64,000 nucleotides of DNA. It comes from an uncultured Planctomycetota bacterium. Lineage in GTDB: Bacteria; Planctomycetota; Planctomycetia; Isosphaerales; Isosphaeraceae. The stretch's first letter is position 1. Every line of letters starts with the position of its first letter. The notes under the pieces were generated by a model, which was given only the letters and a program-made list of their open reading frames with translations, did no database searches and was not told the DNA's origin. The stretch is taken from contig CAVTTN010000002.1 of NCBI GenBank assembly GCA_963737655.1, forward strand, positions 6,144,001 to 6,208,000. The letters run 5' to 3'. The position numbers and the translations under genes are program-made. Positions 30,919 to 47,799 of this stretch are shown piece after piece.

Positions 30919-30945
30919 AGTTCCGAAAAAAGCCGCACTGCCCCC

Positions 30946-30974
30946 TTGCATGCGTTCGGCGACACCATTAGAAG
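30946..30974 (+). promoter_or_regulatory. Putative sigma-70 promoter of ncRNA unit 1
   Basis: TTGCAT-17 bp-TAGAAG; hexamers and spacing are conserved in unit 2 while the spacer sequence differs. Confidence 0.6.
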
Positions 30975-30979
30975 AGTCC

Positions 30980-31252
30980 TGCTCTCGACGAGAGGCAAGG
31001 GTCCGGGAGGACAGGTCTAGCTCGGTGCCCTGCACCGGGGCGGCGTTGCGCCGCCCGAGCGTTCGGCCGGTCATGCGTCACAACGAAGGCTGTTTCAGAC
31101 TCGCTTCTCGGGGGAATTACCCCACCGGGGCCTGCGGGTCTGGAGCAACCCCGCCGATCGGGGTTCCGCAGGCCCCGGTGGGGTAATTCCCCCGGCGAGT
31201 CCGAGAGCCTTCGATGTCCCAGGTCTTGAAGTAGAGCGGCCTCCCCGACCCC
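30980..31252 (+). ncRNA. Putative retron msr-msd ncRNA, copy 1
   Basis: Terminal a1/a2-like imperfect inverted repeat (GGGTC.GGGAGG..TCTA, 30999-31019, vs TAGA..CCTCCC.GACCC, 31232-31251). Candidate branch G at 31020. Two short msr hairpins (31023-31037; GGGCGGCG-TTG-CGCCGCCC 31038-31056). Long msd hairpin 31084-31213 with a perfect 29-bp stem, 31109-31137 / 31166-31194. Lies upstream of a retron RT operon. Confidence 0.8.
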
Positions 31253-31261
31253 GATTCCGTG

Positions 31262-31311
31262 CGAGGCGGGCCGGACTCTCCCTCCGGCCCGCCTCGTCTC
31301 GGGTCGATTTT
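31262..31311 (+). terminator. GC-rich hairpin after ncRNA copy 1 (possible terminator or processing site)
   Basis: CGAGGCGGGCCGGA-CTCTCCC-TCCGGCCCGCCTCG (14-bp perfect stem), with a short ATTTT at 31307-31311. Confidence 0.5.
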
Positions 31312-31353
31312 CGACGAGTCGAGATGAAGTTTGACGAAATTCGGACGGGGCCC

Positions 31354-31382
31354 TTGCATGCGTGTCCCGGCATCATTAGAAG
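31354..31382 (+). promoter_or_regulatory. Putative sigma-70 promoter of ncRNA unit 2 / retron operon
   Basis: TTGCAT-17 bp-TAGAAG, exactly 408 bp downstream of the first. Confidence 0.6.
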
Positions 31383-31387
31383 AGTCC

Positions 31388-31660
31388 TGCGCTCGACGAG
31401 AGCAAGGGGTCCGGGAGGAGAGGTCTAGCTCGGTGCCCTGCACCGGGGCGGCGTTGCGCCGCCCGAGCGTTCGGCCGGTCATGCGTCACAACGAAGGCTG
31501 TTTCAGACTCGCTGACCGGGGTGATCACGACCCCTACGGCGGCGGGTCTGGAGCAACCCCGCCGATCGGGGTTCCGCCGCCGTAGGGGTCGTGATCACCC
31601 CGGCGAGTCCGAGAGCCTTCGATGTCCCAGGTCTTGAAGTAGAGCGACCTCCCCGACCCC
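31388..31660 (+). ncRNA. Putative retron msr-msd ncRNA, copy 2 (different msd stem)
   Basis: Same architecture as copy 1 at +408 bp; 31421-31513 is identical to 31013-31105. Candidate branch G at 31428. Perfect 30-bp stem 31516-31545 / 31574-31603 of different sequence. Confidence 0.8.
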
Positions 31661-31758
31661 GATTCGTCGCGGGGCGGGCCGGACTCTCCCTCCGGCCCGC
31701 CTCGCGTCGGGTCGAACTGCCCGACACGTCTCCCGACCTTCGAGGCGAGGAACCGGCC

Positions 31759-34700
31759 GTGAGCACCTCGATCCGCCTGGACGAAGTCCGTCGGGCCCTG
31801 GAGGCGAGGGACCCGGCCCTGATCGACCTCGTCGTCGAGCTCGCCGGGTCGAGCGACCCGGAGCCCGAGACCCCGATCCGCGAGGGCGCGCCGACCTTCG
31901 CGAAATTCCTGGCCGAGACCCGCTCCCAGGACTTCCGCCGCAAGCCCCGACCCGAGCAGGGCATCGAGCGCCAGGCGAAGCTCAAGGCCCTGGAATCGCC
32001 GGACGCCGAAGTCCCCCTGCCCGACCGGCTCCGGCTCCACGAAGTCCTCGCCGCCCTCTGGAAAGACGACGGCCCGTTCGCCCGCCAGTGCCTGCTCGAC
32101 ATCATCGCCCGAATCCCCGCGCGATACGGCCCGTGGAAGGCGCTCAAGAGGATCTTCAAGGAGGCCCAGGCGAAGGGGGACGACGAGATGTTCGCCGCCC
32201 TGGCCGCCCGGTTCGACTCGGCCTATGCCGAGCACCAGACCGAGGTCGGCAAGCTCACCCTCGCCTACCTCCGCCGGAGGGCCTGGCGGCACCTCCGCCG
32301 GACCGCCGAACGCCTCCCGGCCGCCTATGCGGACCTCGCCGCCGACGTCCTGGCCCGATACGACGACGGGACCCAGTGGGCCAAGACGTGGGTCGCCAAC
32401 CACATCCTGCTTCATGGCGGCAAGGGCTACGGGCGCGGGGAATTCGGGTACACCGGGGCGATGTCCACCGGCAACTTCACCAAGTTCCGCGCCTATCCCG
32501 AGCTCTGGAAGCGGACGCCCCGCCCCCTGTTCGGCCTCCTGGAGCGGTCGCGGAACGAGAGGGCCCGGCGGTTCGCCAGCATGGCGCTGAAGGAGGACTT
32601 CCGCGCCTCGCTCCGCGAGGTCGAGCCCGGATGGGTCGCCCGGCTCGTGGCCGTCCGCAGCCAGTCGGTCGATCAGTTCGTGGTCTGGGTCCTGTCGAAT
32701 GTCCCGAGGTTCGAGCAGGCCGCGTTCCGCGCGCTGGGGCTCCATGAGGCGGTCCTCCGCCTGTTCGATTCGCCGTCGGACGAGGCCCGGACCTATGCGG
32801 CCGGCTACGCGCGGACCCACTCGCGAGACTTGCCCGTCTCCCGCCTGATCGAGCTCGCCGACAACGACAACGACGACGTCCGCCGGCTCGCGGCCGACCT
32901 CCTCGGCGACCTCGACCCCCGGAAAGATGTGGGCCTGGACGCCTGGGGCCGGCTCCTGGAGACCGAGAACGGCTCGAAGCTCGCCGCCGACGCCATCCGC
33001 AAGAATTTCGGCCCCAAGGAGCTGACGCCCGAGTGGTTCCGCACCCACCTCTTCACGCCCCACGACGACGCCTTCCGCTTCCTCTCGGGCCTCCTGGCGC
33101 AGGTCCACCCCGCCGAGAAGCTCGGCCCGGACTTCTTCCGGGGGCTGATCGAAGCGGCGCCCGAGGACGTGGATGAGGACGCCTGGGGTCACGTCGCCCC
33201 GTTCGCCCTGAAGCAACTGGAGAGGTTCGACCTCAACGCCCTGCCCTCCGCGTTCCTCCGCCGATTGGTCCTGGATTCGAGGACGCGCGATACCGTGGCC
33301 TCCTGGATCGACTCGGGGCGGCTGAAGCCCTCGTCGATCGGGATCGACTTCCTCAAGGCGATGGCGTCCTCGGCGGATTTCGAGGCCCATCCCGCCGTGG
33401 TCGAGGCCCGCCGGCTCGGGCCGAAGTGGGCGAAATCGCTGGCCTATGACGAGAGGTTCGCCGACCGCGTGCTGGCGATCCTCGGCGACGTCCGCAAGGT
33501 CCTGCCCGCCGACCTCGGGTTCGAGTGGCTCCTGTCCCTGGCCTCGCGGAGCGAGCCCCGGTATCACGATTTCGCCGTGGGAGTGCTGACCAAGGGGTTC
33601 GTCCCGGCCGACTTCGCCCCGGGCGATCCGGCGACGGCCTCGGCCTCGACATCGGGGCCGATCGACCTCGGCGGCGCGTCCTTCCTGTTCACCGGCAAGA
33701 TGGCCACGATGAAGAGGAACGACGCCGAGGCCCAGGTGAAGGCCTCGGCCGGCTCGGTGGCCTCGGGCGTGTCGGCGAAGCTCCATTACCTCGTGATCGG
33801 CGACGAGGGCTCGCCGCTCTTCGGCCACGGCAAGAAGGGGGACAAGCAGACCAAGGCCGAGTCCCTGAACGCCTCCGGGGCGAACATCAAGATCATCTCC
33901 GAGACCGCATTCCTGAAGATGCTCGCCGGGGGCGTGAAGGAGGTCTCGGCCGACGCCTCGCTCGCCGGCTCCGAACGGCTCTGGGACATGGCCACCGCCC
34001 CCGGTCCGGCCGACGCGCCCAGGGCCCGATTCGCGATCGAATACCTCCTGAAACATCACCCCGAGATCGGCCCGGCCCGGACCGAGAAGCCCGTCGATCC
34101 CGGGGCCGAGGTGCCCTCGGAGTTCTTCGATTTTCGGCGGATCGAGCCGCTGTTCCAGGAGACGAGGAAGCCGCTCCGCGACTTCGCCCTGACGCTCGCC
34201 CGCTGGGAGTTCGCCCGCTGGTCGCCCCCGCCGGAGAGCCTCGTCAAGCTGGCCGAGAGCCCTCATCTCGACGTCCGCCGGTTCGTCGCGGAAGCCCTTT
34301 TGGCCGACGACCTGCCCGAGAACCGCCGGTTCCGGATCGACCCGGAGACGCTCAGCCCGTCCGCCGTGTACAGCTTCTGCGAGTCCGCCGATGCCTCGAC
34401 GAGAGACCTCGGGATGCAGCTCATCGGCCGGTCGCCCCGGCTCCGCGAACCCGAGGAGCTGTTCCGATTGACCGATAGCCCGGATCGCCAGATGAGGGCG
34501 TTCGTCGTCCGGGCGTTGTGGTCGCTCTATCGGGATCGCGGGATCACCGAGGGCTGGAAGCCGTCGCTCCCCCCGGCGCCCACGGTCGGCGCCGGGGCGA
34601 GGAAGGCGGCGGCCGTGGCCGCGGAGACCCGCGGGACCGGCCCTCCGGCGAGGCCCGAGAATCCCCCGGCCGAGCCCCGGTCGATGTGGGGCCTCCTCCG

Positions 34701-34992
34701 CCGGTCGTTGTTCGAGCTGCCGCCCCCCCGGCCCGAGAAGGGGGAGGCCGTCGAGGCCCAGGGGCGATTGAAGCCCCTCCCGGCGCGGATGGCCAAGCTC
34801 GCGATGATCGAGGTCACGCGCGACCTGGCGATCGAGGACCAGGCGTTTGCCCGGGGGGTGTTGCCCCTGCTCGAAGAGTTCCTGCCGTCCCGCGGGATCA
34901 GCGAGAAATCGGCCTGCCTCGTGGCGATCTCGCGGATTCGCCAGGCGTGGCCGTCCTTGCTGCGGCCGATCGGCGAGGGGGTGGCGTCGTGA
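31759..34992 (+). CDS. Retron-associated HEAT/ARM-like helical protein with an internal BRCT domain (~1077 aa)
   Basis: GTG start after GAGG. BRCT of the NAD-ligase C-terminal type at ~33667-33924 (LGGASFLFTGKM...AGSVASGVSAKLHYLVIG...IKIISETAFLKML). HEAT-like repeats such as DDVRRLAADLL. Confidence 0.8.
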   Translation: MSTSIRLDEVRRALEARDPALIDLVVELAGSSDPEPETPIREGAPTFAKFLAETRSQDFRRKPRPEQGIERQAKLKALESPDAEVPLPDRLRLHEVLAALWKDDGPFARQCLLDIIARIPARYGPWKALKRIFKEAQAKGDDEMFAALAARFDSAYAEHQTEVGKLTLAYLRRRAWRHLRRTAERLPAAYADLAADVLARYDDGTQWAKTWVANHILLHGGKGYGRGEFGYTGAMSTGNFTKFRAYPELWKRTPRPLFGLLERSRNERARRFASMALKEDFRASLREVEPGWVARLVAVRSQSVDQFVVWVLSNVPRFEQAAFRALGLHEAVLRLFDSPSDEARTYAAGYARTHSRDLPVSRLIELADNDNDDVRRLAADLLGDLDPRKDVGLDAWGRLLETENGSKLAADAIRKNFGPKELTPEWFRTHLFTPHDDAFRFLSGLLAQVHPAEKLGPDFFRGLIEAAPEDVDEDAWGHVAPFALKQLERFDLNALPSAFLRRLVLDSRTRDTVASWIDSGRLKPSSIGIDFLKAMASSADFEAHPAVVEARRLGPKWAKSLAYDERFADRVLAILGDVRKVLPADLGFEWLLSLASRSEPRYHDFAVGVLTKGFVPADFAPGDPATASASTSGPIDLGGASFLFTGKMATMKRNDAEAQVKASAGSVASGVSAKLHYLVIGDEGSPLFGHGKKGDKQTKAESLNASGANIKIISETAFLKMLAGGVKEVSADASLAGSERLWDMATAPGPADAPRARFAIEYLLKHHPEIGPARTEKPVDPGAEVPSEFFDFRRIEPLFQETRKPLRDFALTLARWEFARWSPPPESLVKLAESPHLDVRRFVAEALLADDLPENRRFRIDPETLSPSAVYSFCESADASTRDLGMQLIGRSPRLREPEELFRLTDSPDRQMRAFVVRALWSLYRDRGITEGWKPSLPPAPTVGAGARKAAAVAAETRGTGPPARPENPPAEPRSMWGLLRRSLFELPPPRPEKGEAVEAQGRLKPLPARMAKLAMIEVTRDLAIEDQAFARGVLPLLEEFLPSRGISEKSACLVAISRIRQAWPSLLRPIGEGVAS

Positions 34993-37900
34993 GCGAACCT
35001 CTGGACTACGACATCCCGTTCCGGGGCGACCTGAAGGCGGCCGTCGGCGTCGGCTCGGCGGTCCTGTTCGTCACCCATCACCCCGAAGGCCGGCCGGCGG
35101 GCCTCGTCTGGAACGACCTGGGCGAGGAGCGGCCGAAGTCGCAAGTCTTCGTCCTGCCGGGGGGCGGCTCGGCCCTCGTCGCCGACGGCGATTCGGTCTG
35201 GGTCGGCGGAGGGGACGGCCAGCTCTATCGAGGCCCCGTCGGCGACGCCCCGAAGCCGATCGGCCCGAAGCTCCCGGGGCCTCCGAAGGGCCTGGCGATC
35301 CTGTCGGACGACCGCCTCGGCGCGATCGTCGGCTCCGAATTGCTGATCCTTTCGCGCCAGGATGGCAGGACGAAACAATCGCTGCCCTTGCCGGCGGTCC
35401 GTTCGGCGATCGCGGCCGACCCGGCGGGCAAGTGGGTGGCGGTGGGGTCGGTCGACGGCTCGATCTCGGTCTTCGAGGGCGAGGGCGCGGCGGAGTTCGT
35501 CCCGAGCGACTCGCGGAAGGTCCACGAAGCCGCCGTCACGGCCCTGCTGTTCGAGCGCGACGACCTCCGTTTCTTCTCCGCCGGGGCCGATCAAAGGCTG
35601 TTCACCACCCACGCCCGGGGCAAGCTCGAACCCGAGGACAAGGGACGCGGGAACACTCATGCCGACGTCGTCCCGTCGATGATCTGGGGCCCGGCCGACC
35701 GCCTCCTGACCGGCGGCCGGGACGGCGCCGTGAAATCCTGGCCCCGGGTCGGCGGGGTGAAGCCCTCGACCCAGAAGGACGGCGTGGCGAAGGTCGTCGC
35801 GATGGCCCTGGTGACCCGCCTGGGCCGCGAGCACCTGGCCGTCGCCTGCGAGGACAACACGGTCCGGACGTTCTCGCTGGACGCCTCCGGCAAGATCGGC
35901 GACCTCGTGACCCGGGGGCACGACGCCCTGGCGTCGGCGCGTCGGGAGCTCGGCGGCAACGACCATCGAGGCCGGGAAGTCGCCCTGCATCGCCTGGCCG
36001 AGTACGACGACTCCGCCGGGCTCGGGCTGGTGGCCGAGCAGGTCGGCAAGGACCCCGACCACGCCCTCCGCGTGAAGGCGGCCGAGCTCCTCGGGAAGTC
36101 GGACAACCCCCAGGCCGCCACCTTGCTGGAGCCGATGCTCAAGCATCCCGAGGCGGCCGTCCGCTCGGCGGTCCTCGCCGGGCTGAGGAGGCAGAGGGGG
36201 GCGGCCGACCTGCGGACGCTCGACCTCGCGCTCAGGGCCGAGAAGCCCGAGATCGGCAAGGCGGCCGTGGAGGCGCTCGCCGAGATCGCCCCGAAGGACG
36301 ATCGCGCGCTCGCCCGGCTCACGGCCGCCCTGTCGGCCAGGACGCCCGAGACCCGCCAGGCCGCGCTGATCGGCCTCGAATCGGCCTATGCGAAGGATTC
36401 GCCCGAGGCCGACCTGATCGCCCTGGGCACCGAGTTCGCGGACGTCCGCCAGGCCGCCCTGTTGCGGCTCTTCCGCCGGGGGTTCCTCGAAGACCCGGCC
36501 GTGAGGACCGCGTTGAGGCTCCGGGCCGAGGACGCCGATGCGGAGGTCCGCCGGGTCGCCTTCCTGCTCGCGCTCCACGCCCGACCGTCCTTGCTGGCGA
36601 GCCTCCGGGCCCGGGACCCCGAGCTCGAACGCCAGGTCGCCGACCTCGAAGGCACCGCCGAGCCGGCGAAGGCGCCGAAAAAGGCCACGACCAAAGAGGC
36701 AGCCCTCGCGAGCGACGACCTCGAGCCGCTCCTCCAGGCGTCGGCCAGCCGGTCGCTGGATACGAGCCTTCGAGGGGCCCGGGGGCTGGCCGTCCTGGGC
36801 GATCCCCGGGCGTTCGGGCTGCTCCTGCAACTCAGTCGCGAGGACGAGGCGACGGCCCGGGTCGAGGTCTGCCGGGCGATGGCGGCCCTGGACGACCCCC
36901 GGGCCGTCGAGAGGCTGCGATCGCTCCTGGCGGACGCCGACGCGGCGGTCCGCGACGCGGCGTTCTCGGCCCTGGCCCGGCTCCACCAGGCCGACCCGTG
37001 GAAGGCGGCGGAAGCCGGCCTGACGGCCCCGTCCGAGGACGTCCGCCGCCGGGGGCTCGGCGTCCTGATCGCCTCCGCGAGGAAGGCCCCGCCGAAGGGG
37101 CCCGACGACCGCGCGTGGAACCTCCTGGCCGACGCCCTGAATGACGCCTTCGCCTCGATCCACTCCGAGGCGTTCAAGGCCGTCCTGAACCTGGGGATCG
37201 GCGGAGGGGGCCCGGCGTCCCTGCGGTTCGCCATGAAGAGCCTTCGCGCGGAGGTCCGCTCCGAGGCGTTGAAAGAGGCCGAGGCCCTGGTCGGCCAGCC
37301 GGGCGGCTGGGACGTCCTCCTGGAGTTCTTCAACGACCCCGATTCGGCCCTCCGAGGCCGCGCCTTCGAGTTCGCCACGAAGAAGACCAAGGGGCTGGAG
37401 ATCCTCGACGCGGCGCTCGGCTCGCGCTATCCCGAGATGCGCAAGGCGGCCGTCGAGGGGCTGGTCAAGAAGCACACCGCCGCCGCTCAGAAGCTGCTGG
37501 TCCGGGCCCTGGAGGACGAGGCTCGCGCGGTCCGGCTCGCGGCCCTGGAATCGCTCGTCGCCGAGGACGCCGTCCCCGTCTTGCTGGAAGCCCTGGACGG
37601 CCCTCATGCCGACGTCCGCCTCCGGGCGGCGAAGGCCCTCGCCCGCCACGGCCGGGCCGAGGCGCTCGCCCCCCTGCTCTCCCTGGTCACGACCCCCGAA
37701 CCCCTCGAAAACGAGCGGAAGAAGGACTGGCTCGGCCTCGCCGAATCGGCCCTCGACGGCCTGGGCGAGCTCGGCGACCCGGCGGCCGTCCCGGCGCTGA
37801 TCCCCCTGATCGACAGCCCGCATCCGGCCCTGAGATGGCGGGCCACTCAGGCCCTGGCCTGGTCGTGCCCGCCCGGGGCGACGGCGCCGCTGCGCGACGC

Positions 37901-40900
37901 GCTCCGACATCAAGACGTCCAGGTCCGTTCCGCCTCGGCGGTGGGCCTGGCGTACTCGGGCGACCCGTCGGCCGTCCCGTTGATGCTCTCCAAGGAGGCC
38001 GCGAAGAGCCTGAGCGCCGGCGAGATCCTCGGGGCGGCGCTGGCCCTCAGCGAATCGGCCAGCGGCGAGGGGCACCTGCTCGCGACGCTCGACGACTCCG
38101 GCGTGAAGGCCCGGGACCGGGCCCTGCGGATGCTCGTGATCCTCGAATGGAAGGCCCCGAGGGCGATGGCCGGTCGGCTCCTGGCCGCCCTCGCCGCCCG
38201 GGACGCGAGGACCCGCCTGGTCGCCGCCGAGGCGCTCGAGGCCCTCGCCGAACCGGCCGGGCTCGCCCCGTTCGTCGGCCGCCTGATCAACGAAGCCGAC
38301 CGCAAGACGCCGTGGAAGATCGCCGCCGCGACGCTCGACGACCTCGGCGAGCTCCTCGCCCACGCCGACCCCCGCCTCCGCGCCGGACCGCCCGGCTCCT
38401 CCGCCACCTCGACGCCGACGAGTCGGCCGAGTTCGACCAGGTCTGGGCCGTCCACTCGGCCCGGTTCGCGGCGGAAATCCAGGCGCTCCGAGCCGCCTCG
38501 AAGACCCGCAAGCCGCCGAAGGACCGGCCGTCGGCCGAGGGCCTCCGCGACCTGGCGTTCGGCGCCTATGTGGGCCTGGTCCGGGAGCACGGAGGACGGC
38601 CGAACGACCCGTCGAAGACCGTGGCCGTCCGGCTCTCGGCCCTGAATCACCTCGTGGCGATGGCCCGCTCCGACCCGAAGTTCGCCTCCGGGGCCCGGCC
38701 GGTCCTGGTCCAGGCGATGGGCGACCCGAACGCGGCGGTCAGGCTGCCCGCCTTCGAGGCGCTGCCCGGGCTCGGCCTGCCCTCGGGCGATCTCGCCGCC
38801 GAGGCCCTGGGCGTGGGCCACGTCGATCTCGGCATCAAGGGGTTGGAGGCTCCTGTCCGGCTCGGGGACGTCCGCCGAGGGCCGACGGGTGCTCGACTCC
38901 GCCATGCTCTCGCGACGGGACGACCTCGCCACCGAGGCCGCCAAGCTCCTGATCGCCCGGGAAGGCCCGGCGCCCGTGGCCGCTCGCGCCCTGGACGCCG
39001 CCCACGAGCCGTTGCGGCGGCTCGCCGTCTCGTGGCTGATCGACGAGTTCGACAAGGCCCCCGAGGCGAAGGATTCGCTGCGAAAGGCCCTGAAATCGCG
39101 ATACCCCGAGGTCCGCGAGGCCGCGGCGTTCGGCCTGGCCGGCAAGAAAGACCTGGCCGCGTTCGACGCGCTGGTCGGCCTGCTGAAGGACGCCCCGAAG
39201 TCCGACGCCGCCCGCCCCTACGTCCGCGCCCTGACCTCGCTCGGGGACCCGCGAACGGCCTCCGCGTTCGTCGATCGCGTCGAGGATGACCCGGCCGGGA
39301 CGGCGCCCGTCGAGGACCTCCTCAAGGCCGCCGGCTCGTCCCGCAACCCGGAGGTCTTCGACCGCCTGTTCGCCCTCCTCGACAAGCCCGGCCGGCGATC
39401 CCCCGCGCTCGTGCCGGCCCTCCTGGCGATCTCCGGCCACGACCAGCCGATCGAGGATTTCGAGGACGAGCGCGACGACCGCAAGTGGGAAGCCTCGCAG
39501 TTCCCCCGGCAGGATGAGCTGCTCGCCCGCCTCCTCGGCCGGTTGACCGCCCCCGGAGAGACCGGCGCCTCGGACCTGATCCGCCCCGCTCGATGGTCGC
39601 GATCCGGGGCCGTCGATCCGGTCCTCGCGACCCTGATCGCGCACCCCGACGAATCGACCCGCCGGGCCGCGATCGAGGCCATCGGCTGGCGAGCCCGCAA
39701 GCGAAAGGGCGATTTCGCCCCGCTGGTCAAGGCGCTCGGCTCGAAGGACCCGGTCGCGCAACTGCTCGCGGCCGAGGGGCTGGCGAGGGCCGGGAGGCCC
39801 GAGGGGCTGTCGGTCCTGCTCGCGAGCGTCGAGTTCGTGACCGACCTGAACCTCCGCCGCCGCGCCGTCTCGGCCCTGGGCGAGCTGGGCGACGAGAGGT
39901 CCGCCGACGTGCTCGTGAAGCTCGCCGGGGAGGACGGCCACGCGCTCCAGGACGAGGCCGCCGAAGCGATCGGCCACCTCGGCCAGTCCAAACATGCCGA
40001 GGCGATCACTCGGCTCCTCGAACGTCACGCCCGGGGCAACGGCAGCGTCGTCCAGCACGCGATCCAGGGGCTTCGCTGGCTGAATACGGCCTCCGGCTGG
40101 GGGCTGATCCGCGACCGGGCCGTGGACCCGTCGTTCTTCGATCGCGAGATCGCCGTCGAGCAGCTCGCCCACGACCGCGACCCCGCCACGAAGGACCTCC
40201 TCCTTCGTTTGCTGGCCGAGGACGACGATTTCAGCGTCCTCGAAGCGGCCGTGAACTCGGCCAGGAAGGTGTTCGGGCCGGATTCGCTGGAGCCGGACGA
40301 GGCGATCGTCCAGAACGAGAACGCCACCGGCTCGGACGACTTCGAGGCCGCCGAGGAGCGCGTCTGCGAGCGGTCCAGCCCGGCGCGGATCTTCGCGATC
40401 CTGGAGAAATCGCCGCCCGAGGAGGTCCGCACGTCCCTGTGCCGGGCGTTGCTGAACCGGCCGTCGCCGCCGCTGGCCGAGGCGGAGGCCGGGCTCGGCA
40501 GCCCGTCGCCGATCGTCGCGGCCCTGGCGGCGAGCCTCCTGGGCCGGGCCGGCTCGCCGAAGGCCGGGGCCTCGGTGAAGAAGGCGCTCGAAGCCCGATG
40601 GTCGGCCTGGAAGGCCCGCCGCGAGACCTCGCGCGACGAGGCCGACGGCGGCCCCCGAGCCGAAGAGGCCCTCGCCCTCGCCCGGCTGATCTGGGCATCC
40701 GGGAGGCTCGGAGCCGCCCTCGATCTCCTCGCCGAGATCGCCCGGACCCCGGCCGACGACCGATTCGCGGCGACGGTCCGAAAGGCGGCCGTCCAGGCCC
40801 TCGCCGCCTCTCCGAACCCCTCGAAAAATGCGATCGAGGCCCTCGAATCGGCCGCCGAAGCGGGGAATCCCGACCTCCGCGCCGAGGCGGCGCAGGCCCT

Positions 40901-41309
40901 CGCCGAGAACGCCCCGAAGGCCGCCGCCAAACTCGCCGAAACGCTCCTCTCCGACCGCTCCGCGTTCGACCGCCTGGCCCGGGCCGACGGCCTCGGCGCC
41001 GTCCTTCGCAGCAACGCGGGCGTCGCTCATTATCAAGGCGTGGTCTTGCCCTATCTTGTCGAAGAACAAGACGTGAAGACGCTGGCCGCCGTCGCCGAGG
41101 ACCGCTCCCGGCCCGAATTCGCCCGGCTCGGCGCGATCGAGGCGCTCGCCGCGACGGCCCTCGGGCCGGCCGAGGACGTCCTGAAGCGGATCGGCGCCAA
41201 CTCCGGCGACGACGAGGAGATCCGCAAGGCCGCCTGGCGGGCCGTCCGACGATCGCGGAGGCTCCGACTCAAGGCCAATCCCCCGAAGAAGGCCGAGGTG
41301 GCGAGATGA
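34989..41309 (+). CDS. Retron-associated giant WD40 beta-propeller + HEAT-repeat protein (~2,100 aa; two compensating frameshifts)
   Basis: GTGA overlap with the upstream gene. WD40 motifs (VAVGSVDGSISVF, HEAAVTALLF, LLTGGRDGAVKSW) then many HEAT/PBS-lyase repeats (ADADAAVRDAAFSAL). A -1 at ~38384 and a +1 at ~38849 rejoin the frame. Confidence 0.8.
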
Positions 41310-43174
41310 GCGACGCCCCCGATCCCGAGGTCGCCGAACCGGCCGGGCCCGAGCGGACCGAGGTCCACCTGACCTACGCCGGGGCCAGCCGCCTCGTCTC
41401 GGACGAGGGATCGGCCCGCCTCGCCCTGGCCGGCGACCTCCGCCGCGACCCCGTCCGGTTCGATGGCGTGATCAACGATCCCTTGCGGTTCCGCGAGGCG
41501 ATGTCGGCCCTCTACGCCGTCGTCGCCAGCGACATGCGCTATCAGCCCAAGGACCGCACCGCCTACCTCGCCTACACGAGGATGCGCCGCGAATCCTCGG
41601 GCCTGGACGCCCTCCACGCCCAGCGAGAATACTTCTCCTGGCTCCTCCAGAACGACCCGCTCGCCTTCGTGATCCTCGACCCGGTGGTGACGGTCCACCC
41701 CGACCAGGTCTTCTTCGAGGTCTTCAGCAAGGACGAGGGCGCCTATGCGAAGCTCGGCATCGATCATGACGCCTTCACGAGCGAATCCGAGCCGTCGTTC
41801 GGCACGACGAACGTCGATTTCAGCCAGGGCCTGTTCCGGGGCATCCAGCAGATGCGGTCGTACCGCGAGACCCGCCTGAGCATCGGCCGGGAGGGCGTGG
41901 CTCTGGCCACGGCGACGGCCGGCGAAGTCCTGGAGAAGACGATCCAGGTGCCCGATTCCTGGCTCCGGGGCTTCCTCCAGGTCCAGTCCGCCGCCGCCCT
42001 CCCGCGCGACACGTTCTCGCTCAAGCCGATCGACCTGTATAACGCGCTGCGATATCTGCGACTGCACGCGGACAAGAAAGGCCAGCGCCGGGGGCTGAGG
42101 GTCGAGCTGATGCCCGGGCAGCCGCCCCGGCTCGTCCTGGAGCCGTGGAACGAGGTGATCCCGGCGACGGCCGGGCCGTACAGGGGCAAGTCCTCGCGGG
42201 TGGCGCGGGTCTGGGGCCGCCGCCGATTGATGCTCATGCAACGCTTCCTGCCGTTCGTGGAAGATGTCGATGTCCACCTCCTGGGCAGCGGCCTGCCGAG
42301 CTTCTGGGTCCTCCGGGGGCGGGGGATGTCCTTGACCCTCGGATTGACCGGCTTCACGGCCGCGAACTGGTCCCAGGCGCTGAACTTCGACCTCCTCCTG
42401 CCGCGAAAGGCCGAGCCGGGCGGGAAGGACCTGGAGGCGGTCCTCGCCCACCTCGCCCCCCGGTGGTCGGCCGGGGCCGGCGAGCTGGCGAAGGCCACGA
42501 AATTGCCCTGGCCGAAGCTGGTCGAGGCGCTGCAACTGGGCTGCCAGCAAGGCCGGATCATGTACGACATCGCGGCCGACGTCTATCGGTTGCGCCCTCT
42601 GACCGACGCCCCGCTCGACCTCTCCCGGCTGGAGTTCCGCGACCCCCGCGAGAAGGTCGCGCATGACCTGCTCGTCCGCCGGGGCGCGGTGACGATCACC
42701 GGGGAGAACCGCATCCCGGGCTCGGGGCTGGAAATCACCGGGAAGGTCGTGGTGGACGAGGACCGCCGCGAATATCGGCCGCAGATGCTCCTGGCCGACG
42801 AGGGGCAGGTCGCGAAGGCCGAATGCACGTGCTCGACGTTCCGCAAGCAGGGCCTGAAGGGCGGCCCGTGCGTCCACCTCGTCGCCCTCCGGCTCGCCCT
42901 GGCCGCCCGGGAAGCCCGGAGGGCGTCGGGCTCCGAGCCGGCCGACGCGATCACCGCCGAGACCCGGCTGTTCAGCCGCCGCGACCCGTCCGGCGAGGAC
43001 GTGGTGCAGATCACCCTCGACCGCCGCCGGGTGAAGTCGCGATGGGGCCGCGCCGACGGCCCTTCGCGGCTCCAGACGCTCACGTTCGACTCGACCGAGG
43101 ACGTGCGCGGGGCGTACCTCGCCCGGATCGCCGACCTCGACGCCCGCGGATTCCTCGACGCCTCGGCCGGATGA
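41306..43174 (+). CDS. Retron-associated SWIM zinc-finger protein with C-terminal WGR-like domain (622 aa)
   Basis: ATGA overlap with the upstream gene; SWIM motif AECTCSTFRKQGLKGGPCVHL (CxC...CxH); C-terminal VKSRWGRADG...GF. Confidence 0.85.
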   Translation: MSDAPDPEVAEPAGPERTEVHLTYAGASRLVSDEGSARLALAGDLRRDPVRFDGVINDPLRFREAMSALYAVVASDMRYQPKDRTAYLAYTRMRRESSGLDALHAQREYFSWLLQNDPLAFVILDPVVTVHPDQVFFEVFSKDEGAYAKLGIDHDAFTSESEPSFGTTNVDFSQGLFRGIQQMRSYRETRLSIGREGVALATATAGEVLEKTIQVPDSWLRGFLQVQSAAALPRDTFSLKPIDLYNALRYLRLHADKKGQRRGLRVELMPGQPPRLVLEPWNEVIPATAGPYRGKSSRVARVWGRRRLMLMQRFLPFVEDVDVHLLGSGLPSFWVLRGRGMSLTLGLTGFTAANWSQALNFDLLLPRKAEPGGKDLEAVLAHLAPRWSAGAGELAKATKLPWPKLVEALQLGCQQGRIMYDIAADVYRLRPLTDAPLDLSRLEFRDPREKVAHDLLVRRGAVTITGENRIPGSGLEITGKVVVDEDRREYRPQMLLADEGQVAKAECTCSTFRKQGLKGGPCVHLVALRLALAAREARRASGSEPADAITAETRLFSRRDPSGEDVVQITLDRRRVKSRWGRADGPSRLQTLTFDSTEDVRGAYLARIADLDARGFLDASAG

Positions 43175-43181
43175 GACCCTC

Positions 43182-44506
43182 ATGGCCACTCAACGCACCA
43201 CCGACCCGCTGACCCTCTGGCGAGCGATCGTCCAGGCCGGCGGCATCCCGTCTTATATCGATGCGCAACTCGCCGAGCGCGGCTTCCTCGTCGCCCGGCG
43301 AGAGACCGACGGGATGTCCGAGCGCGAGCTGGCCGAGTACAAGAAGTCGCTGAAGGCGGAGGCCGCCGAGAAGGTCCGCCTCCGGCGCGAGGCCTGGGCC
43401 GCGTATCGGGCCGAGCACATCGTCTACCTCGGCGACGGCATCTACTGGAAGGACGACCCCGGGCCCGACAAGTGGGACCACCCGAAGGCCGAGGAGCGGG
43501 CCGCCGAGAACGAGCTGCCGCCGCTCGACTCCCCCCGCCAGCTCGCCGAGGCGCTCGGGCTGACCGTCGCGCAGCTCCGCTGGCTGGCCTTCCACCGCGA
43601 CGCCGCCCGGTCGATCCACTACCGGCGGTTCACCATCCCCAAGCGAGACGGCTCCGAGCGCGCCATCTGGGCCCCGATGCCCCGGCTGAAGGCCGCCCAG
43701 CGCTGGATCTTGTGGAACATCGCCGAGAAGCTGCCGGTCCACGGGGCGGCCCACGGCTTCCTCCCGGGCCGCTCGATCCTCTCGAACGCCGCGATCCACC
43801 GGGCGCCGGACCTCGTGGTCAAGATCGATCTCAAGAACTTCTTCCCGACGGTCTCATGGAGACGCGTCAAGGGCCTGTTCCGGAGCGCCGGCTACCGCGA
43901 GCACGTCGCCACCTTGCTCGCCCTGCTCTGCACCGAGGCCCCTCGCGAGATCGTCGAGGACGAGGGGAAGACGTATTTCGTGGCCCTCGGCCCGCGATGC
44001 CTGCCCCAGGGCGCGCCCACCAGCCCCGCGCTCACGAACACGCTCTGCCTCCGGCTCGACCAAAGGCTCTCGGGCCTCGCGAGGAATCGGGGCTGGCGCT
44101 ACACCCGCTACGCCGACGACCTCACCTTCAGCCGCCCGGGCGATGCGAAGGGCCCGCCCGGGATCGGCCGTTTGCTCGGCTCGGTCCGGAGGATCGTCGA
44201 GGGGGAAGGGTTCGCCGTCCACCCGGGCAAGACCACGGTGGGCCGCACGGGGGGCCGGCAACGGATCACCGGCCTGGTCGTCAACGGCGACCGCTCGCCC
44301 CGGCCCACCCGCGAATTCAAGAGGAACCTGAGGGCGGCGATCCACAACCTCGCCGCCGGGAAGGACGCCGAGGGCGGCGAATCCCCGGCGGTGCTCGCCG
44401 GCCGCGCCGCGTTCGTCGCCATGACCGAGCCCGAGCTCGGCCGCGCCCTGCTCGATCGATTGAACCGGGCGCTCGAAGCCCGGGCGCCGGGGCTTCGAAC
44501 CCCTAG
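43182..44506 (+). CDS. Retron-type reverse transcriptase (myxobacterial Mx162/Sa163-like), ~441 aa
   Basis: IPKRDGSERAI, AAHGF, retron region X NAAIH (NAxxH), DLKNFFP, LPQGAPTSP, YTRYADD, region Y RITGLVVN. N-terminal extension (AGGI..YI.AQL...HIVYLGDGIYW) as in Mx162-type RTs. The TAG at 44504-44506 comes into frame if one G is restored in the GGGG at ~44489-44492. Confidence 0.92.
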
Positions 44507-44513
44507 CTCGACC

Positions 44514-47144
44514 TCATCGGCCCGGGGCGACGGCCTTCTGGAGGCCGGTGACGACCTCGGCCCCCGGGGGCTCGCAGATCCTCGGGACCGCCAGGCGGAC
44601 GCCGTGGTCCCGGAACTTGACCAGGGGGGACTCGGGGAAGCTCACCGCCACGTCCGGGTTGCCGGGTCGGAAGCCGTGGTCCAGGGCCCTTTCCTGGACC
44701 GCCTGGGTCATCAGGAACTCGAGGAACCGCCGCGCCTCCTTCCTCTGCGCCTCCGAGCTCCAGGGGACGTCCAGGACGTAGTAGGGGTGGTCGTTCCACA
44801 CGTTGGGATCGGCGTAGATGACCTGGAGGGAGCCGGCCTCGCCCCACTTCGAGAGGGCCTTGTCGATCGAGTCGATCGCGAGGTTCTCGTACACCAGGAC
44901 GCAATCGAATTGCGAGGGGCCCTTGTTGACCATCTCCTTCATGAGCGTCCCGGTGCTCGCCGTGAGCGAGCCCGAGGGCCGGGTCAGCCGGGATTCGAAC
45001 GTCGCGAGCCAGGAGACGAAGTCCTCGCCGCGGACGTCCTCGACGGTCAGGTGACGAAGCTTGGCCCGGAACTCGTACGCCATGAGGACCAGGGCGAGGA
45101 ACCCGCTGTTGGACGTCTCCGGGTCGGTGTGGGCGAACTTGAACAGGCCCCACTCGGGCTTCTCGGCGATCGATCTCCAGCCGTCGGGCTCGGCCATCGC
45201 CCGGCCGATCGTCTTGAAGGAGACCTCGCCGTACTTCTTGACGAAGGCGTCGTGGCGGTCTTTCCACATGACGAAGACCATCGGCGTGACGGCCAGCTCG
45301 CGCGCCTCCAGGATCGCGGGCCGGTCGTGCTTCGCCTTCCAGCGCTCCTCGAAGAGCTTCCGGTAGGCGCTGCTGGCGGGGCTCCAGACGTGGATCGGCC
45401 GGTCCCCCGGGCCGTCCAAAACGAGGTTGGCGCCTTCGAGCGATCCGAGGCCCCTCAGGGTGATGTGGGACCGCTTGCCCTCGGGGGTGGCCTCGTAGTC
45501 CTTCAGGGCCGCCTTGAGCCACGCCTCCTTCTCGGTCCCGTAGGCGATCACGACCTCGGGCAAGTCGCCCGGGACGGTCGGGATCCCCGAGGCCGAGCCC
45601 GCCGACCCGCCCGGCTTGGCCGAGGACCGGCGGACCTCCTCCGGACCGACTCCCCAGAACCCCCGGATCGACGGCCACATCGCCGCGATCAGGAGGCCGG
45701 CGACGACCAACGCCGAGGCCGCCGCGATCAGGCCCCGGGCGCCCTTCTTCCTCGGAGGCCCCGCCGGCTTCGGCGCCGAGGCCGAGGGAGCCGCCGGGGC
45801 GCCGGTCAGGCCCGTCCGATCGGCGAACGAGAACTCGGTGAACGAGACCTGCGAGGGATGCCTCGGCGGGGGGGCGCCGGTTGCTTCATCGGCGAGGTCC
45901 GGCCTCGGCCTCTCGGCGAACGAGAACTCGGTGAACGAGACGTTCGAGGACGGGTCTCTCGGCGGGGGCGTGGGCGCCTCGATCGTGCCGGGGTCGGGCC
46001 TCTCGGCGAACGAGAACTCGGTGAACGAGACGTTCGAGGGATGGGCCGGGAACGGCCCGGTGGCGTCGGTCGGCCCGACCACCGCCCGGAGCTGGACGGT
46101 CTGATCCTGGGGGAGGACCCGGGAGATCGTCCCGCAGTGAATGCAACGGACCTCCTCGCCCACGAACCGGGTGTCGGCGCCGATCAGGGCCCGGCACGAC
46201 GGGCAGGGGACGAGGCCGACGGGCACTCGTTCCGGGGCGGCCTCGCGAACCGAGGGCGCCTCGGGCAGTTCGGCCAGGGCCTCCTGGGCCATCATCGCGC
46301 AGGAGGCGAAGCGGTCGTTGGGCTCCTTGGACATCCCCCGGCGGATCGCCCGGGAGAGCCTCGCCGGGATGCCCGGCAGGAGCTCGTCCAGGGGCGGCGG
46401 GTCGATGTTCGTCTGGTTCACGATCGTGGCCGAAGGCGACGGCCCGACGAGGTAGTTCTTGCCGGTGAGGACCTCGTGGACGGTCAGGGCGAGCGAGTAC
46501 TGGTCGGCCCGGCCGTCGGTCCGGGCCCCGATGACGATCTCGGGGGCCACGTAGCTGGGCGTCCCCAGGAGGAAGCCCGGGGCCGTCAGCGAGTTCTCCT
46601 CGGCGGTCCGGGCCTCGTCCCGGGAGAGGGCCTTGATGATCCCGAAGTCGCCGATGAACGCGTTGCCGTGGGCGTCGAAGAGGATGTTCGCCGGCTTCAC
46701 GTCGCGGTGGATGTGCCCCTGGGAGTGGATGAAGTCCAGGGCCCGGGCCACGTCCAGCAGCCAGTCGCGGAGGGAGGCCGGGTCCATCGGCCGGGCCTCG
46801 CCCTCGGGCCCGCCCTGCATCCGCTCCTTCAGGCTGCCGCCGGTCAGGTACTGCATGACCACGAACGGGCGGTCGCTCATCACCCCCACGTCGATGATCC
46901 GGACGATGTGGGGGTGGCCCAGCTTCACCAGAGACCGCGTCTCCCGGCTGAACCGCTCGATCAGGTTCGGCATCGGCATCCCCTGCTCGGGGCCGATCGG
47001 GAACTTGATCACGACCTCGGTCTGGAGGTTGTTGTCGAACGCCCGGAAGACCTGCCCCATGCTCCCCGAGCCGATCCGGCCGAGGACCCGGTAGCGGCCC
47101 CCGCCCAGGGCCCGGCCGATCCAATCTTCAGTCGCGCCGACCAC
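44514..47144 (-). CDS. Hanks-type Ser/Thr protein kinase with Zn-ribbon, Pro-rich repeats, TM helix and extracellular solute-binding domain
   Basis: IGSGSMGQVF, HRDVKPAN, DFG, YVAPE; CPSC...CIHC; TM helix; SBP-like C-terminus (YGTEKEAWL, WSPAS, HTDPETSNSG, HGFRPG). Confidence 0.9.
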   Translation of the reverse strand: MVGATEDWIGRALGGGRYRVLGRIGSGSMGQVFRAFDNNLQTEVVIKFPIGPEQGMPMPNLIERFSRETRSLVKLGHPHIVRIIDVGVMSDRPFVVMQYLTGGSLKERMQGGPEGEARPMDPASLRDWLLDVARALDFIHSQGHIHRDVKPANILFDAHGNAFIGDFGIIKALSRDEARTAEENSLTAPGFLLGTPSYVAPEIVIGARTDGRADQYSLALTVHEVLTGKNYLVGPSPSATIVNQTNIDPPPLDELLPGIPARLSRAIRRGMSKEPNDRFASCAMMAQEALAELPEAPSVREAAPERVPVGLVPCPSCRALIGADTRFVGEEVRCIHCGTISRVLPQDQTVQLRAVVGPTDATGPFPAHPSNVSFTEFSFAERPDPGTIEAPTPPPRDPSSNVSFTEFSFAERPRPDLADEATGAPPPRHPSQVSFTEFSFADRTGLTGAPAAPSASAPKPAGPPRKKGARGLIAAASALVVAGLLIAAMWPSIRGFWGVGPEEVRRSSAKPGGSAGSASGIPTVPGDLPEVVIAYGTEKEAWLKAALKDYEATPEGKRSHITLRGLGSLEGANLVLDGPGDRPIHVWSPASSAYRKLFEERWKAKHDRPAILEARELAVTPMVFVMWKDRHDAFVKKYGEVSFKTIGRAMAEPDGWRSIAEKPEWGLFKFAHTDPETSNSGFLALVLMAYEFRAKLRHLTVEDVRGEDFVSWLATFESRLTRPSGSLTASTGTLMKEMVNKGPSQFDCVLVYENLAIDSIDKALSKWGEAGSLQVIYADPNVWNDHPYYVLDVPWSSEAQRKEARRFLEFLMTQAVQERALDHGFRPGNPDVAVSFPESPLVKFRDHGVRLAVPRICEPPGAEVVTGLQKAVAPGR
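45820..46031 (-). repeat. Three identical 29-bp in-frame repeats in the kinase linker (VSFTEFSFA)
   Basis: TCGGCGAACGAGAACTCGGTGAACGAGAC at 45820, 45913 and 46003 (periods 93 and 90 bp). Confidence 0.85.
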
Positions 47145-47196
47145 GGAAGACCTCCTTCGAGACGGGAGAGGATGGGCCGGGGCCGAGGCCGGGGTC

Positions 47197-47799
47197 TCAG
47201 GACCCGGCGACGGCCCGGGCTCCCGGGCCGATCGGCAGGGCGATTCGGAACGTGGTGCCGACCCCGGGTTCGCTCGCCACGTCGATCGTCCCGCCGTGCT
47301 CGACGATCGTCGAATGAGCCAGGCTGAGCCCCAGGCCGGTGCCCCGACCCACGGCCTTGGTGGTGAAGAACGGGTCGAAGATCCGGGGGAGGCTCTCCGG
47401 CGCGATCCCGCAGCCGTCGTCGCCGATCTCCACGATCGCCCGGTCCCCTTCGGACCGGGTGGACACGACGATCCGGCCTCGGCCTCGGCCCGAGTCCTCG
47501 ATCGCCTGTTCCGCGTTCATCAGCAAATTGAGGACGGCGTCCCGCAGCGCCCCGTCCCTCGACTCGTCCGGCCCCAGGCCCAGGAGTTCGGCGAGGGGAG
47601 CCGTGGCCGAGATCAGCCGATACGTCCCCGGTTCGAGCCGGGCGATCATCTCCCCGGACCGGCCCGCCCGCGAGTTCGGCAAGGGCATCAGCATCGACCG
47701 GCTGACCGTCTGATCCCCGCCCGCCGCCGACACCCCCGCCCCGCCCGCCGGAGCGGGCAGGGACTGGCCGCAAACAGAGCACTCGCGGTTGGGAGGCAT
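47197..47799 (-). CDS. HATPase_c (histidine-kinase ATPase) domain protein lacking an evident HisKA domain
   Basis: N box LNLLMNA, G1 DDGCGI, F box IFDPFFTTK, G2 GTGLGLS; N-terminal CSVC. Confidence 0.75.
   Translation of the reverse strand: MPPNRECSVCGQSLPAPAGGAGVSAAGGDQTVSRSMLMPLPNSRAGRSGEMIARLEPGTYRLISATAPLAELLGLGPDESRDGALRDAVLNLLMNAEQAIEDSGRGRGRIVVSTRSEGDRAIVEIGDDGCGIAPESLPRIFDPFFTTKAVGRGTGLGLSLAHSTIVEHGGTIDVASEPGVGTTFRIALPIGPGARAVAGS

Follow-up and report, generated by a model that had tools for sequence, protein, structure and literature searches.

Two tandem msr-msd genes with different stems in a probable type XIII retron of a planctomycete

We analysed a 64,000-nucleotide stretch, hereafter the window, from the genome of an uncultured planctomycete of the family Isosphaeraceae (assembly GCA_963737655.1, contig CAVTTN010000002.1, positions 6,144,001 to 6,208,000). 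On its + strand stand two head-to-tail units, 408 bp apart (30929-31336 and 31337-~31744), and a search of the 7.6-Mb genome returned exactly these two and no others. The likely reading is a tandem duplication of the msr-msd gene in a type XIII retron (Mx162 class) that is chromosomal and inherited vertically, with one reverse transcriptase (RT) probably serving both units. That the units are retron template RNAs is very likely; that both are used by the one RT is probable on present sequence data. The feature is real and well defined and its identification as msd is right. The payload reading, in which the differing stems would be a cargo of double-stranded DNA (dsDNA) on a constant scaffold, serving as sensors, decoys or guides, is possible.

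Two template units and one reverse transcriptase operon

A repeat scan of the window returned a direct repeat of 300 nt at 408-nt spacing (ungapped identity 86%) and, in each unit, an inverted repeat with 100% complementary arms and 28 nt between them: 31109-31137/31166-31194 in unit 1 (29-nt arms) and 31516-31545/31574-31603 in unit 2 (30-nt arms). Pairwise alignment of the units showed 11 differences in the 29 positions of the 5' arm of this stem and 11 in the 29 of its 3' arm, at mirror positions, together with differences at 3/3 positions of the bulge just before it. Elsewhere the units differ at 1/21 positions in a1 and 1/23 in a2, and at none in the msr, linker and lower 5' stem (0/86), the apical loop (0/28) or the lower 3' stem (0/38), with identical runs of 93 nt upstream and 45 nt downstream. 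The stem coordinates, mirrored changes and identical flanks and loop described in an earlier note on this DNA were thus all reproduced. The same note had named an assembly artefact as a finding that would refute it. Against an artefact speak the structured way in which the copies differ and the arrays of two to three units with different stems in eight further assemblies, among which Singulisphaera sp. PoT (L039) is a complete genome. Predicted RNA fold energies were -220.2 and -225.1 kcal/mol for units 1 and 2 (z = -10.9 and -9.6), and 0 of 100 shuffled sequences folded as well. The parts of each unit are as follows.

Unit 1
30946..30974, +, putative promoter-like element: TTGCAT, 17-nt spacer, TAGAAG (from sequence)
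30999..31019, +, a1 arm, pairing with a2 (duplex -27.8 kcal/mol, against -18.0 for shuffled a2)
31020, +, candidate priming (branch) G, in the invariant motif TCTAGCT right after a1
31021..31079, +, msr: two short hairpins inside a closing helix, then a linker (covariation)
31080..31231, +, msd, predicted template of ~150 nt (fold and alignment; exact complementary DNA (cDNA) ends predicted)
31080-31105/31195-31231, +, conserved lower msd stem (fold and alignment)
31106-31108, +, bulge
31109-31137/31166-31194, +, variable stem (inverted repeat)
31138-31165, +, conserved apical loop with mini-hairpin
31232..31253, +, a2 arm (duplex with a1)
31261..31296, +, GC-rich terminator-like hairpin (inverted repeat, 14-nt arms, 100% complementary)

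Unit 2
31354..31382, +, promoter-like element: TTGCAT, 17 nt, TAGAAG (from sequence)
31407..31428, +, a1 arm and candidate priming G (31428) (duplex, invariant motif)
31429..31639, +, msr and msd (inverted repeat, fold, alignment)
31514-31516, +, bulge
31517-31545/31574-31602, +, variable stem, with an extra pair 31516/31603
31546-31573, +, apical loop
31640..31661, +, a2 arm (duplex with a1)
31660..31714, +, terminator-like hairpin (inverted repeat, 24-nt arms, 83% complementary)

A CTTGC(A/G)...TA(G/C)AA element aligns upstream of units in other genera, and the spacer of the promoter-like element differs at 6/17 positions between units 2 and 1. Most homologues have a GC-rich hairpin 3' of a2; that of unit 1 has no T-run, so the consensus scan calls no terminator. 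Since a scan of the window with E. coli-type consensus promoters and terminators called nothing, both assignments come from the conserved motifs and hairpins only.

The RNA has the anatomy of a retron. In an alignment of 35 units from this and related genomes, the a1/a2 duplex is kept in 35/35 despite varying sequences (mean -22.8 kcal/mol, versus -13.3 for shuffled a2), and TCTAGCT directly follows a1, with T23 A24 G25 C26 T27 invariant. TAGC is given as the usual context of the retron priming G (Simon et al. 2019, PMC6868368), and G31020 and G31428 are candidates for the 2'-OH priming G of each RNA. The three msr helices are 95-99.6% paired, with some compensatory changes. The msd hairpin is modular. 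Its lower stem of 20 pairs is invariant in sequence; a 3-nt bulge and the variable stem of 29 bp follow, and the apical module of 28 nt, again invariant, includes a mini-hairpin. The short msr hairpins, two here, and the single long msd hairpin fit the general retron pattern, which allows one to three of the former and 10-50 bp for the latter.

Downstream of the units, and on the same strand, lie five genes.

31759..34992, +, HEAT/ARM protein 1, 1077 amino acids (PADLOC HEAT-ARM_XIII, 1136.9 bits, E = 0; syntenic in relatives)
34518..38645, +, HEAT/ARM and WD40-like protein 2 (open reading frame (ORF), true start uncertain; PADLOC HEAT-ARM_XIII PDLC02919 positions 4-1068 of 1972; Pfam HEAT_2, WD40)
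38889..41309, +, HEAT/ARM protein 3 (PADLOC PDLC02919 positions 1224-1968 of 1972; Pfam HEAT_2)
41228..43174, +, SWIM zinc-finger protein (PADLOC SWIM_XIII, 7.3e-197, residues 590-1107; Pfam SWIM)
43182..44520, +, retron RT, conserved part of ~445 amino acids (PADLOC RT_XIII, 1.9e-158, residues 5-434; Pfam RVT_1)

Type XIII retrons, the class of Mx162, Mx65, Sa163 and Ne144, are defined by a clade-10 RT with a SWIM zinc-finger protein (cluster 114) and HEAT/ARM or WGR-like proteins, and are described as having their own ncRNA (non-coding RNA) structure and vertical inheritance (Mestre et al. 2020, PMC7736814). All three protein components were found here by PADLOC, with 526 bits for RT_XIII, 653 for SWIM_XIII and 1137, 1141 and 702 for HEAT-ARM_XIII (E = 0 for two of the proteins and 5e-211 for the third); the first HEAT/ARM protein also has a secondary WGR_XIII match (1e-42). 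The best PADLOC models for the RT are all retron RTs. It carries NAAIH (NAXXH), YADD and ITG, the last a V-to-I variant of VTG, and an N-terminal extension of ~140 residues like that of myxococcal RTs. Region X NAXXH, YXDD and VTG are reported as retron RT hallmarks, with the V-to-I change as in Vc81 (PMC6868368). The SWIM ORF is open from 39593; homology begins near residue 545-590, and tblastn matches to relatives start from residue ~545. The earlier note had taken the hairpins for retron templates of the msd type, and the operon matches, TAGC, a1/a2 and covariation bear this out.

Some features of the HEAT/ARM proteins deserve mention. Residues ~633-722 of the first match the C-terminal part of the NCBIfam models for LigA (NAD-dependent DNA ligase) and for a DNA polymerase III epsilon subunit (E 1e-7 to 9e-14, far below the cut-offs). 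The C-terminal part of LigA is its BRCT domain, and the match suggests a BRCT-like module inside this protein. Proteins 2 and 3 match the first and second halves of one 1972-position HEAT-ARM_XIII model, and a large repeat protein looks split into two genes here (34518-38645 and 38889-41309). Their tblastn matches stand consecutively in relatives as well.

In the mechanism that we propose, the two units would be transcribed separately, each having a promoter-like element in front and a terminator-like hairpin behind. Each RNA would be closed by a1/a2 and would offer the G of TAGC as 2'-OH primer, the two msr hairpins serving RT recognition and the ~150-nt msd hairpin serving as template. A single type XIII RT is present, ~11.5 kb downstream as the last gene of a HEAT/ARM x3 - SWIM - RT operon. 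It would copy both RNAs, yielding two species of multicopy single-stranded DNA (msDNA) that share their basal and apical modules and differ in the central stem.

Pairing and composition of the variable stem

The 72 pairs of the 35-unit alignment are 98.1% paired; shuffling the columns lowered this to 79.7%, and sliding the 3' partner by 1-3 columns lowered it to 37-47%. Changes on both sides occur in 36/72 pairs, and 0 of 500 shuffles reached the observed covariation score. In the stem, 26/29 pairs covary, and the scaffold is nearly invariant. The earlier note's picture of a constant scaffold with a variable, always-paired stem holds across the family, the stem varying far more than its flanks. 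Stem length is 29 bp in 38/39 units, and 32 bp in L043.

An RNA G.U pair becomes an A.C mismatch in the cDNA, and vice versa. Among 1015 cells of the variable stem, 1002 are Watson-Crick, 2 G.U, 4 A.C, 6 other and 1 a gap, versus 25 G.U in 560 cells of the msr helices (Fisher p = 6.5e-10). The stem would be strictly Watson-Crick because it must pair both as RNA template and as cDNA, and we take the avoidance of both G.U and A.C as indirect evidence for reverse transcription.

This contrast bears on the idea that the units are RNA-only structured small RNAs, acting as a regulator or as a scaffold of the HEAT/SWIM proteins, and that the RT uses another template. An RNA-only helix would not need to avoid wobble in the variable stem when the msr helices do not. 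The idea also has to set aside a complete retron anatomy (a1/a2, the TAGC G, msr hairpins and a long msd hairpin), and no other candidate template was seen, the SWIM-RT gap being 7 nt and the genome holding only these two units. In its favour are the ~11.5 kb between the ncRNA genes and the RT, the fact that no cDNA has been observed, and the presence of the msr core of relatives in contigs from RNA libraries. On balance we consider it very improbable. As for these libraries, we examined three RNA libraries and one DNA run, and two soil/plant RNA libraries gave 137 and 127 contigs at a likeness of at least 80%. Such contigs carry the conserved msr core of relatives and show presence in the libraries, not transcription, ends or processing. 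Most of their cover falls on the msr core, the 3' conserved part receiving much less, in contig depths that cannot rank gene parts. None of the examined runs covered the promoter, terminator or HEAT1 flanks, which is uninformative since those parts are not conserved in relatives.

The stem is not uniform along its length: GC-rich, semi-conserved pairs occupy both ends (the first 7 and the last 5), and the central ~17 pairs are free. The central 17 bp, with 24-65% AT at individual positions, are AT-richer than the window, which is 70% GC. AT-containing 4-bp palindromes (AATT, GATC, GTAC, CTAG, CATG) number 34 in the 35 stems versus 21.0 +/- 4.2 in shuffles, which is only a hint, as p = 0.004 is uncorrected for four tests and the units are related. 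The other tests on these stems found no significant enrichment of palindromes (all 4-mers, p = 0.075; all 6-mers, p = 0.20; AT-containing 6-mers, p = 0.17). The six-base sites TGATCA, ACTAGT, GCATGC and GAATTC each occur in single stems.

Arrays, duplication and divergence of the stems

The RNA was found in 13 of 61 genomes searched: the one analysed here, 11/36 others of the same family and 1/24 belonging to the class but to different families. A search pattern made of the invariant alignment columns hit 17 loci among 185,579 species genomes and 9 in metagenome contigs, and had 0 matches in IMG/VR. All named loci belong to Isosphaeraceae or unclassified planctomycetes (Paludisphaera, Singulisphaera, Tautonia, Tundrisphaera); a 2026 survey counts 26 type XIII candidates in Planctomycetota (PMC13712802). 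The order ncRNA, HEAT1, HEAT2, HEAT3, SWIM, RT is kept in 9/10 relatives' loci, the tenth (G017) being a 5.9-kb contig that ends inside HEAT2. Templates and RT are therefore linked across four genes. More than one unit occurs in 9/27 places, the window included:

3 units: 1 place (L042)
2 units: 7 places (the window, L039 (Singulisphaera sp. PoT, complete genome), L044, L045, L050, L052, L058)
at least 2 units, array cut by a contig end: 1 place (L041)
1 unit within the flanks examined: 18 places (short flanks in four)

The earlier note had proposed looking for longer arrays elsewhere, and L042 is one. Two identical stems never occur in one array. Among cultured strains, S. acidiphila DSM 18658 has one unit and Singulisphaera sp. 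PoT two. In the other arrays, units differ from each other at 2-7/21 positions in a1 and 3-13/23 in a2.

Four units were left out of the 35-unit alignment: L059 and L061 for their poor pairing, L060 because it duplicates L040, and L037 for its divergence. The stems of L059 and L061 have 19 and 22 Watson-Crick pairs of 29, and both lie on short metagenome contigs or contig ends. L059 is probably a chimeric assembly, each of its arms resembling an arm of a different unit elsewhere, and L061 may be chimeric or decayed. Their mismatched arms, which probably stem from short-read chimeras formed across tandem units, warn against reading such arrays from fragmented assemblies. L037 is a divergent unit from another family, with, by eye, 28 Watson-Crick pairs and one C.A. 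The single stems of L054, L047 and L053 (Singulisphaera) look mosaic when compared with L039, L058 and L049: the lower half is like the 'CGTCCGGGAGGCC' stem type and the upper half like the 'CTAGTTCTCCG' type, and L058 has these two types in separate units of one array. The sequences hint at exchange between stems of neighbouring units.

The history of the duplication can be approached through G001, a genome of the same genus with one unit and a perfectly paired stem. This stem differs at 6/29 positions from copy a of the window and at 7/29 from copy b, versus 11 between the copies. Solving branch lengths from the three pairwise distances gave:

Stem: branch a, 5; branch b, 6; branch to G001, 1
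Flank-like sites (promoter spacer, leader, a1, a2): branch a, 4; branch b, 8; branch to G001, 37
Conserved scaffold: branch a, 0; branch b, 0; branch to G001, 6

The contrast between stem and flank-like sites is significant (Fisher p = 3e-5). Because the G001 stem sits between the copies, we place the duplication within this lineage, after which both stems evolved fast and the rest stood nearly still. The 11 compensated differences would thus post-date the duplication, the copies having left a G001-like stem by 5 and 6 pairs.

An older duplication would tell the opposite story: the units would predate the split of the congeners, gene conversion would have spared only the stems, and G001 and the more distant congener G002 would each have lost a copy. 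It would account for the scaffold, a1, a2 and most of the terminator being near-identical between the units when a2 differs from G001 at 13/23 positions, a likeness of a1 and a2 that is unusual next to the other arrays. However, the single stems of the congeners group with neither copy (G002 differs from them at 16/29 and 18/29), and both copies carry derived changes of their own when set against the GGATCACCCC core common to G001 and G002. We hold this older origin to be improbable.

The earlier note had argued that random drift would not confine all change to the stem. Plain drift since the duplication indeed fails in the branch-length contrast, and the confinement itself is largely accounted for by purifying selection on a scaffold that is invariant across genera. 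The two most recent paralogue pairs (the window; units 2 and 3 of L042) show 11 stem versus 2 scaffold changes and 15 versus 6, compared with 6 versus 5, 3 versus 6, 7 versus 7 and 10 versus 7 in the four closest orthologue pairs (Fisher p = 0.023). In the L042/L045/L050/L052 clade the stems are near saturation and unit orthology is ambiguous. Imperfect stems are found in 5/17 array units and 3/19 single units, a direction that fits redundancy in a difference that is not significant.

Two explanations of this burst compete. The first is redundancy: a second good copy would tolerate a mismatched intermediate, so that compensatory turnover is faster in a helix indifferent to sequence. The stem would then be a fixed 29-bp duplex that pairs as RNA template and as cDNA, otherwise free in sequence, above all in its central ~17 bp, and would act as a spacer, keeping base and apical module a constant distance apart. 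We lean towards this explanation tentatively, at somewhat less than an even chance, because stem length is fixed and stems of single-copy orthologues turn over freely. The fixed 29-bp length fits a spacer as well as a payload.

The second explanation is selection for two different stems, which we find possible, if doubtful, and over which redundancy is put slightly ahead. The central stem would be a specificity module, and the two or three msDNAs would be different dsDNA baits, for phage or host DNA-binding or DNA-modifying proteins or for the retron's own SWIM/HEAT proteins, with diversifying selection after duplication; in this form too it is possible and somewhat doubtful. The burst in both stems (5 and 6 pairs versus 1) with barely changed flank-like sites is in line with it, as are the excess of stem change per scaffold change in recent paralogues over the closest orthologues, the arrays in 9/27 places of which none has two identical stems, and the AT-richer central 17 bp with their modest enrichment in AT-containing 4-bp palindromes. 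UG27 systems, moreover, are reported to have an RT that serves arrays of variable hairpin templates (preprint 10.64898/2026.09.22.753630). Yet a fixed length and free turnover even between single-copy orthologues are what a spacer would show, one unit suffices for most genomes (18/27 places), a binding partner is known for no type XIII msDNA, and the statistics come from few, related comparisons.

The stems also lack a match in phage, viral or host DNA, a search that the earlier note had suggested and that yielded nothing beyond chance level. Against their own genome the stem arms gave only self-matches and exact words of at most 16 nt; a 16-mer match 2 kb from a second RT lies inside a repeat-protein coding region and was judged to be chance. 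Among 50,697 phage records, the unit 1 hairpin had no match, which is weak evidence as the collection probably has few or no planctomycete phages, and the unit 2 hairpin matched five records at E 0.2-0.8, i.e. chance level, in the same probably planctomycete-phage-poor collection. Exact 21- and 22-nt stem words had 0 matches each in IMG/VR.

Taken further, selection would amount to natural multiplexing, in which template duplication and selected diversification of the central ~17 bp arm one RT-HEAT-SWIM machine with two or three dsDNA baits. We rate this as unlikely; if true, the stem would be the specificity determinant and array growth a slow germ-line widening of what the retron senses.

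Returning to the reading of the region as two template genes of one type XIII retron, several observations weigh against it. The msDNA, the branch point and the transcript have not been seen, and no public run contains this organism (the best share of window words was 0.08). Rfam has no matching family, so the RNA assignment rests on anatomy and context; a search of all families at E up to 10 gave only chance hairpin-shaped matches to plant and animal microRNA models, far below gathering scores. The units end at ~31714 and the RT starts at 43182 with four genes between, unlike the classic contiguous (msr-msd)-RT cassette. Within the msd, the lower stem keeps an invariant U.G (35/35) and the stem top has a G.U in 28/35 units, where the cDNA would carry A.C mismatches; the no-wobble rule is hence limited to the variable part. 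The RT frame lacks its relatives' stop, and the RT could therefore be damaged or mis-assembled. A second retron-like RT could use one of the two units. Finally, the three-taxon test comes from one lineage only, and G001 is an 820-contig metagenome-assembled genome with its unit split over two overlapping contig ends, where a second, unassembled unit is possible.

The two points on RTs can be made more precise. The RT frame has no stop for 1381 codons (43182-47327, +), while the RTs of relatives end at 446 and 449 amino acids and homology stops near residue 445. Either the stop codon has been lost or the sequence contains an error near 44500. A convergent gene for a Ser/Thr protein kinase with a solute-binding domain (44514-47144, -) lies antisense to the extra ~930 codons, which have no Pfam match. 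The second RT, of 446 amino acids, lies 5.4 Mb away in this genome (G000 C2:719217-720557 (-), equal to L025:1234-2574 (-)) and scores 508 bits with RT_other, 480 with RT_outgroup and 307 with RT_XIII. A third, fragmentary RVT_1 match is found at C2:4064750-4064977.

Comparison with known systems

Mx162, a type XIII retron, was the first retron ever found, and M. xanthus makes two msDNAs from two separate retrons, each with its own RT. To our knowledge the function of type XIII retrons has been shown by no one, and the passages of the cited literature examined here give no biological role for them. The class is vertically inherited, like a housekeeping system, and the present family is a clean natural experiment in which the alignment separates the parts that the machinery needs constant (the msr, the 20-pair lower stem, the 28-nt apical module and a stem length of exactly 29 bp) from those that are free (the central ~17 bp, if paired as RNA and DNA). 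Whether msDNA stems carry specificity is a question testable in cultured Isosphaeraceae with one or two units.

The system described here resembles the known type XIII retrons (Retron-Mxa1/Mx162, Mxa2/Mx65, Sau1/Sa163, Nex2/Ne144) as they are presented in PMC7736814: a type XIII-clade RT with a long N-terminus, SWIM and HEAT/ARM partners, apparently vertical inheritance, a1/a2, a priming G, short msr hairpins and a long msd of about the size of Mx162 (162-nt msd). That msd stems vary while structure is kept is textbook knowledge (PMC7736814, introduction). The present system differs in having two (elsewhere up to three) msr-msd genes per RT, and in that the ncRNA genes head the operon, with four genes (~11.5 kb) between them and the RT, and are not part of an (msr-msd)-RT cassette. 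A full-text literature search found no natural tandem msr-msd genes in a retron; the main text of PMC7736814 does not contain 'tandem', 'duplicat' or 'two copies', and its supplements may list such cases.

The likeness to CRISPR repeat-spacer arrays, an analogy drawn in the earlier note, is limited to the picture of a constant part alternating with a variable one. As a mechanism it does not hold: the variable part is an internal palindrome and not a unique spacer, nothing is acquired from foreign DNA, and arrays have at most three units. Since the stems share one ancestral stem, from which they diverged through compensated point changes, and have no phage, viral or host match, the analogy remains pictorial. 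A CRISPR-like array was rejected on the same grounds, no search aimed at cas genes having been made.

Closer in design are the arrays of UG27 RTs, natural ncRNA arrays with conserved motifs around a variable central hairpin, for which experiments are reported to show that each hairpin is copied into a short cDNA hairpin (preprint 10.64898/2026.09.22.753630). As described there, UG27 is a class 2 UG RT family and not a retron, is phage-borne and amounts to 82,314 units in 14,118 loci, with other motifs and no description of an a1/a2 or branch-G architecture; the arrays studied here are chromosomal and have 1-3 units.

Engineered 'multitrons' also place tandem msr-msd units with different msd contents under one RT, and are described as synthetic, Eco1-based and with donor sequences in the msd loop (preprint 10.1101/2023.07.17.549397). 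Here, by comparison, the array is natural, each unit has promoter-like and terminator-like elements, and only the middle of a fixed-length stem differs. If our reading is right, two or three template genes located four genes away can serve a single RT operon, and the planctomycete arrays would be a natural precedent for engineered retron arrays.

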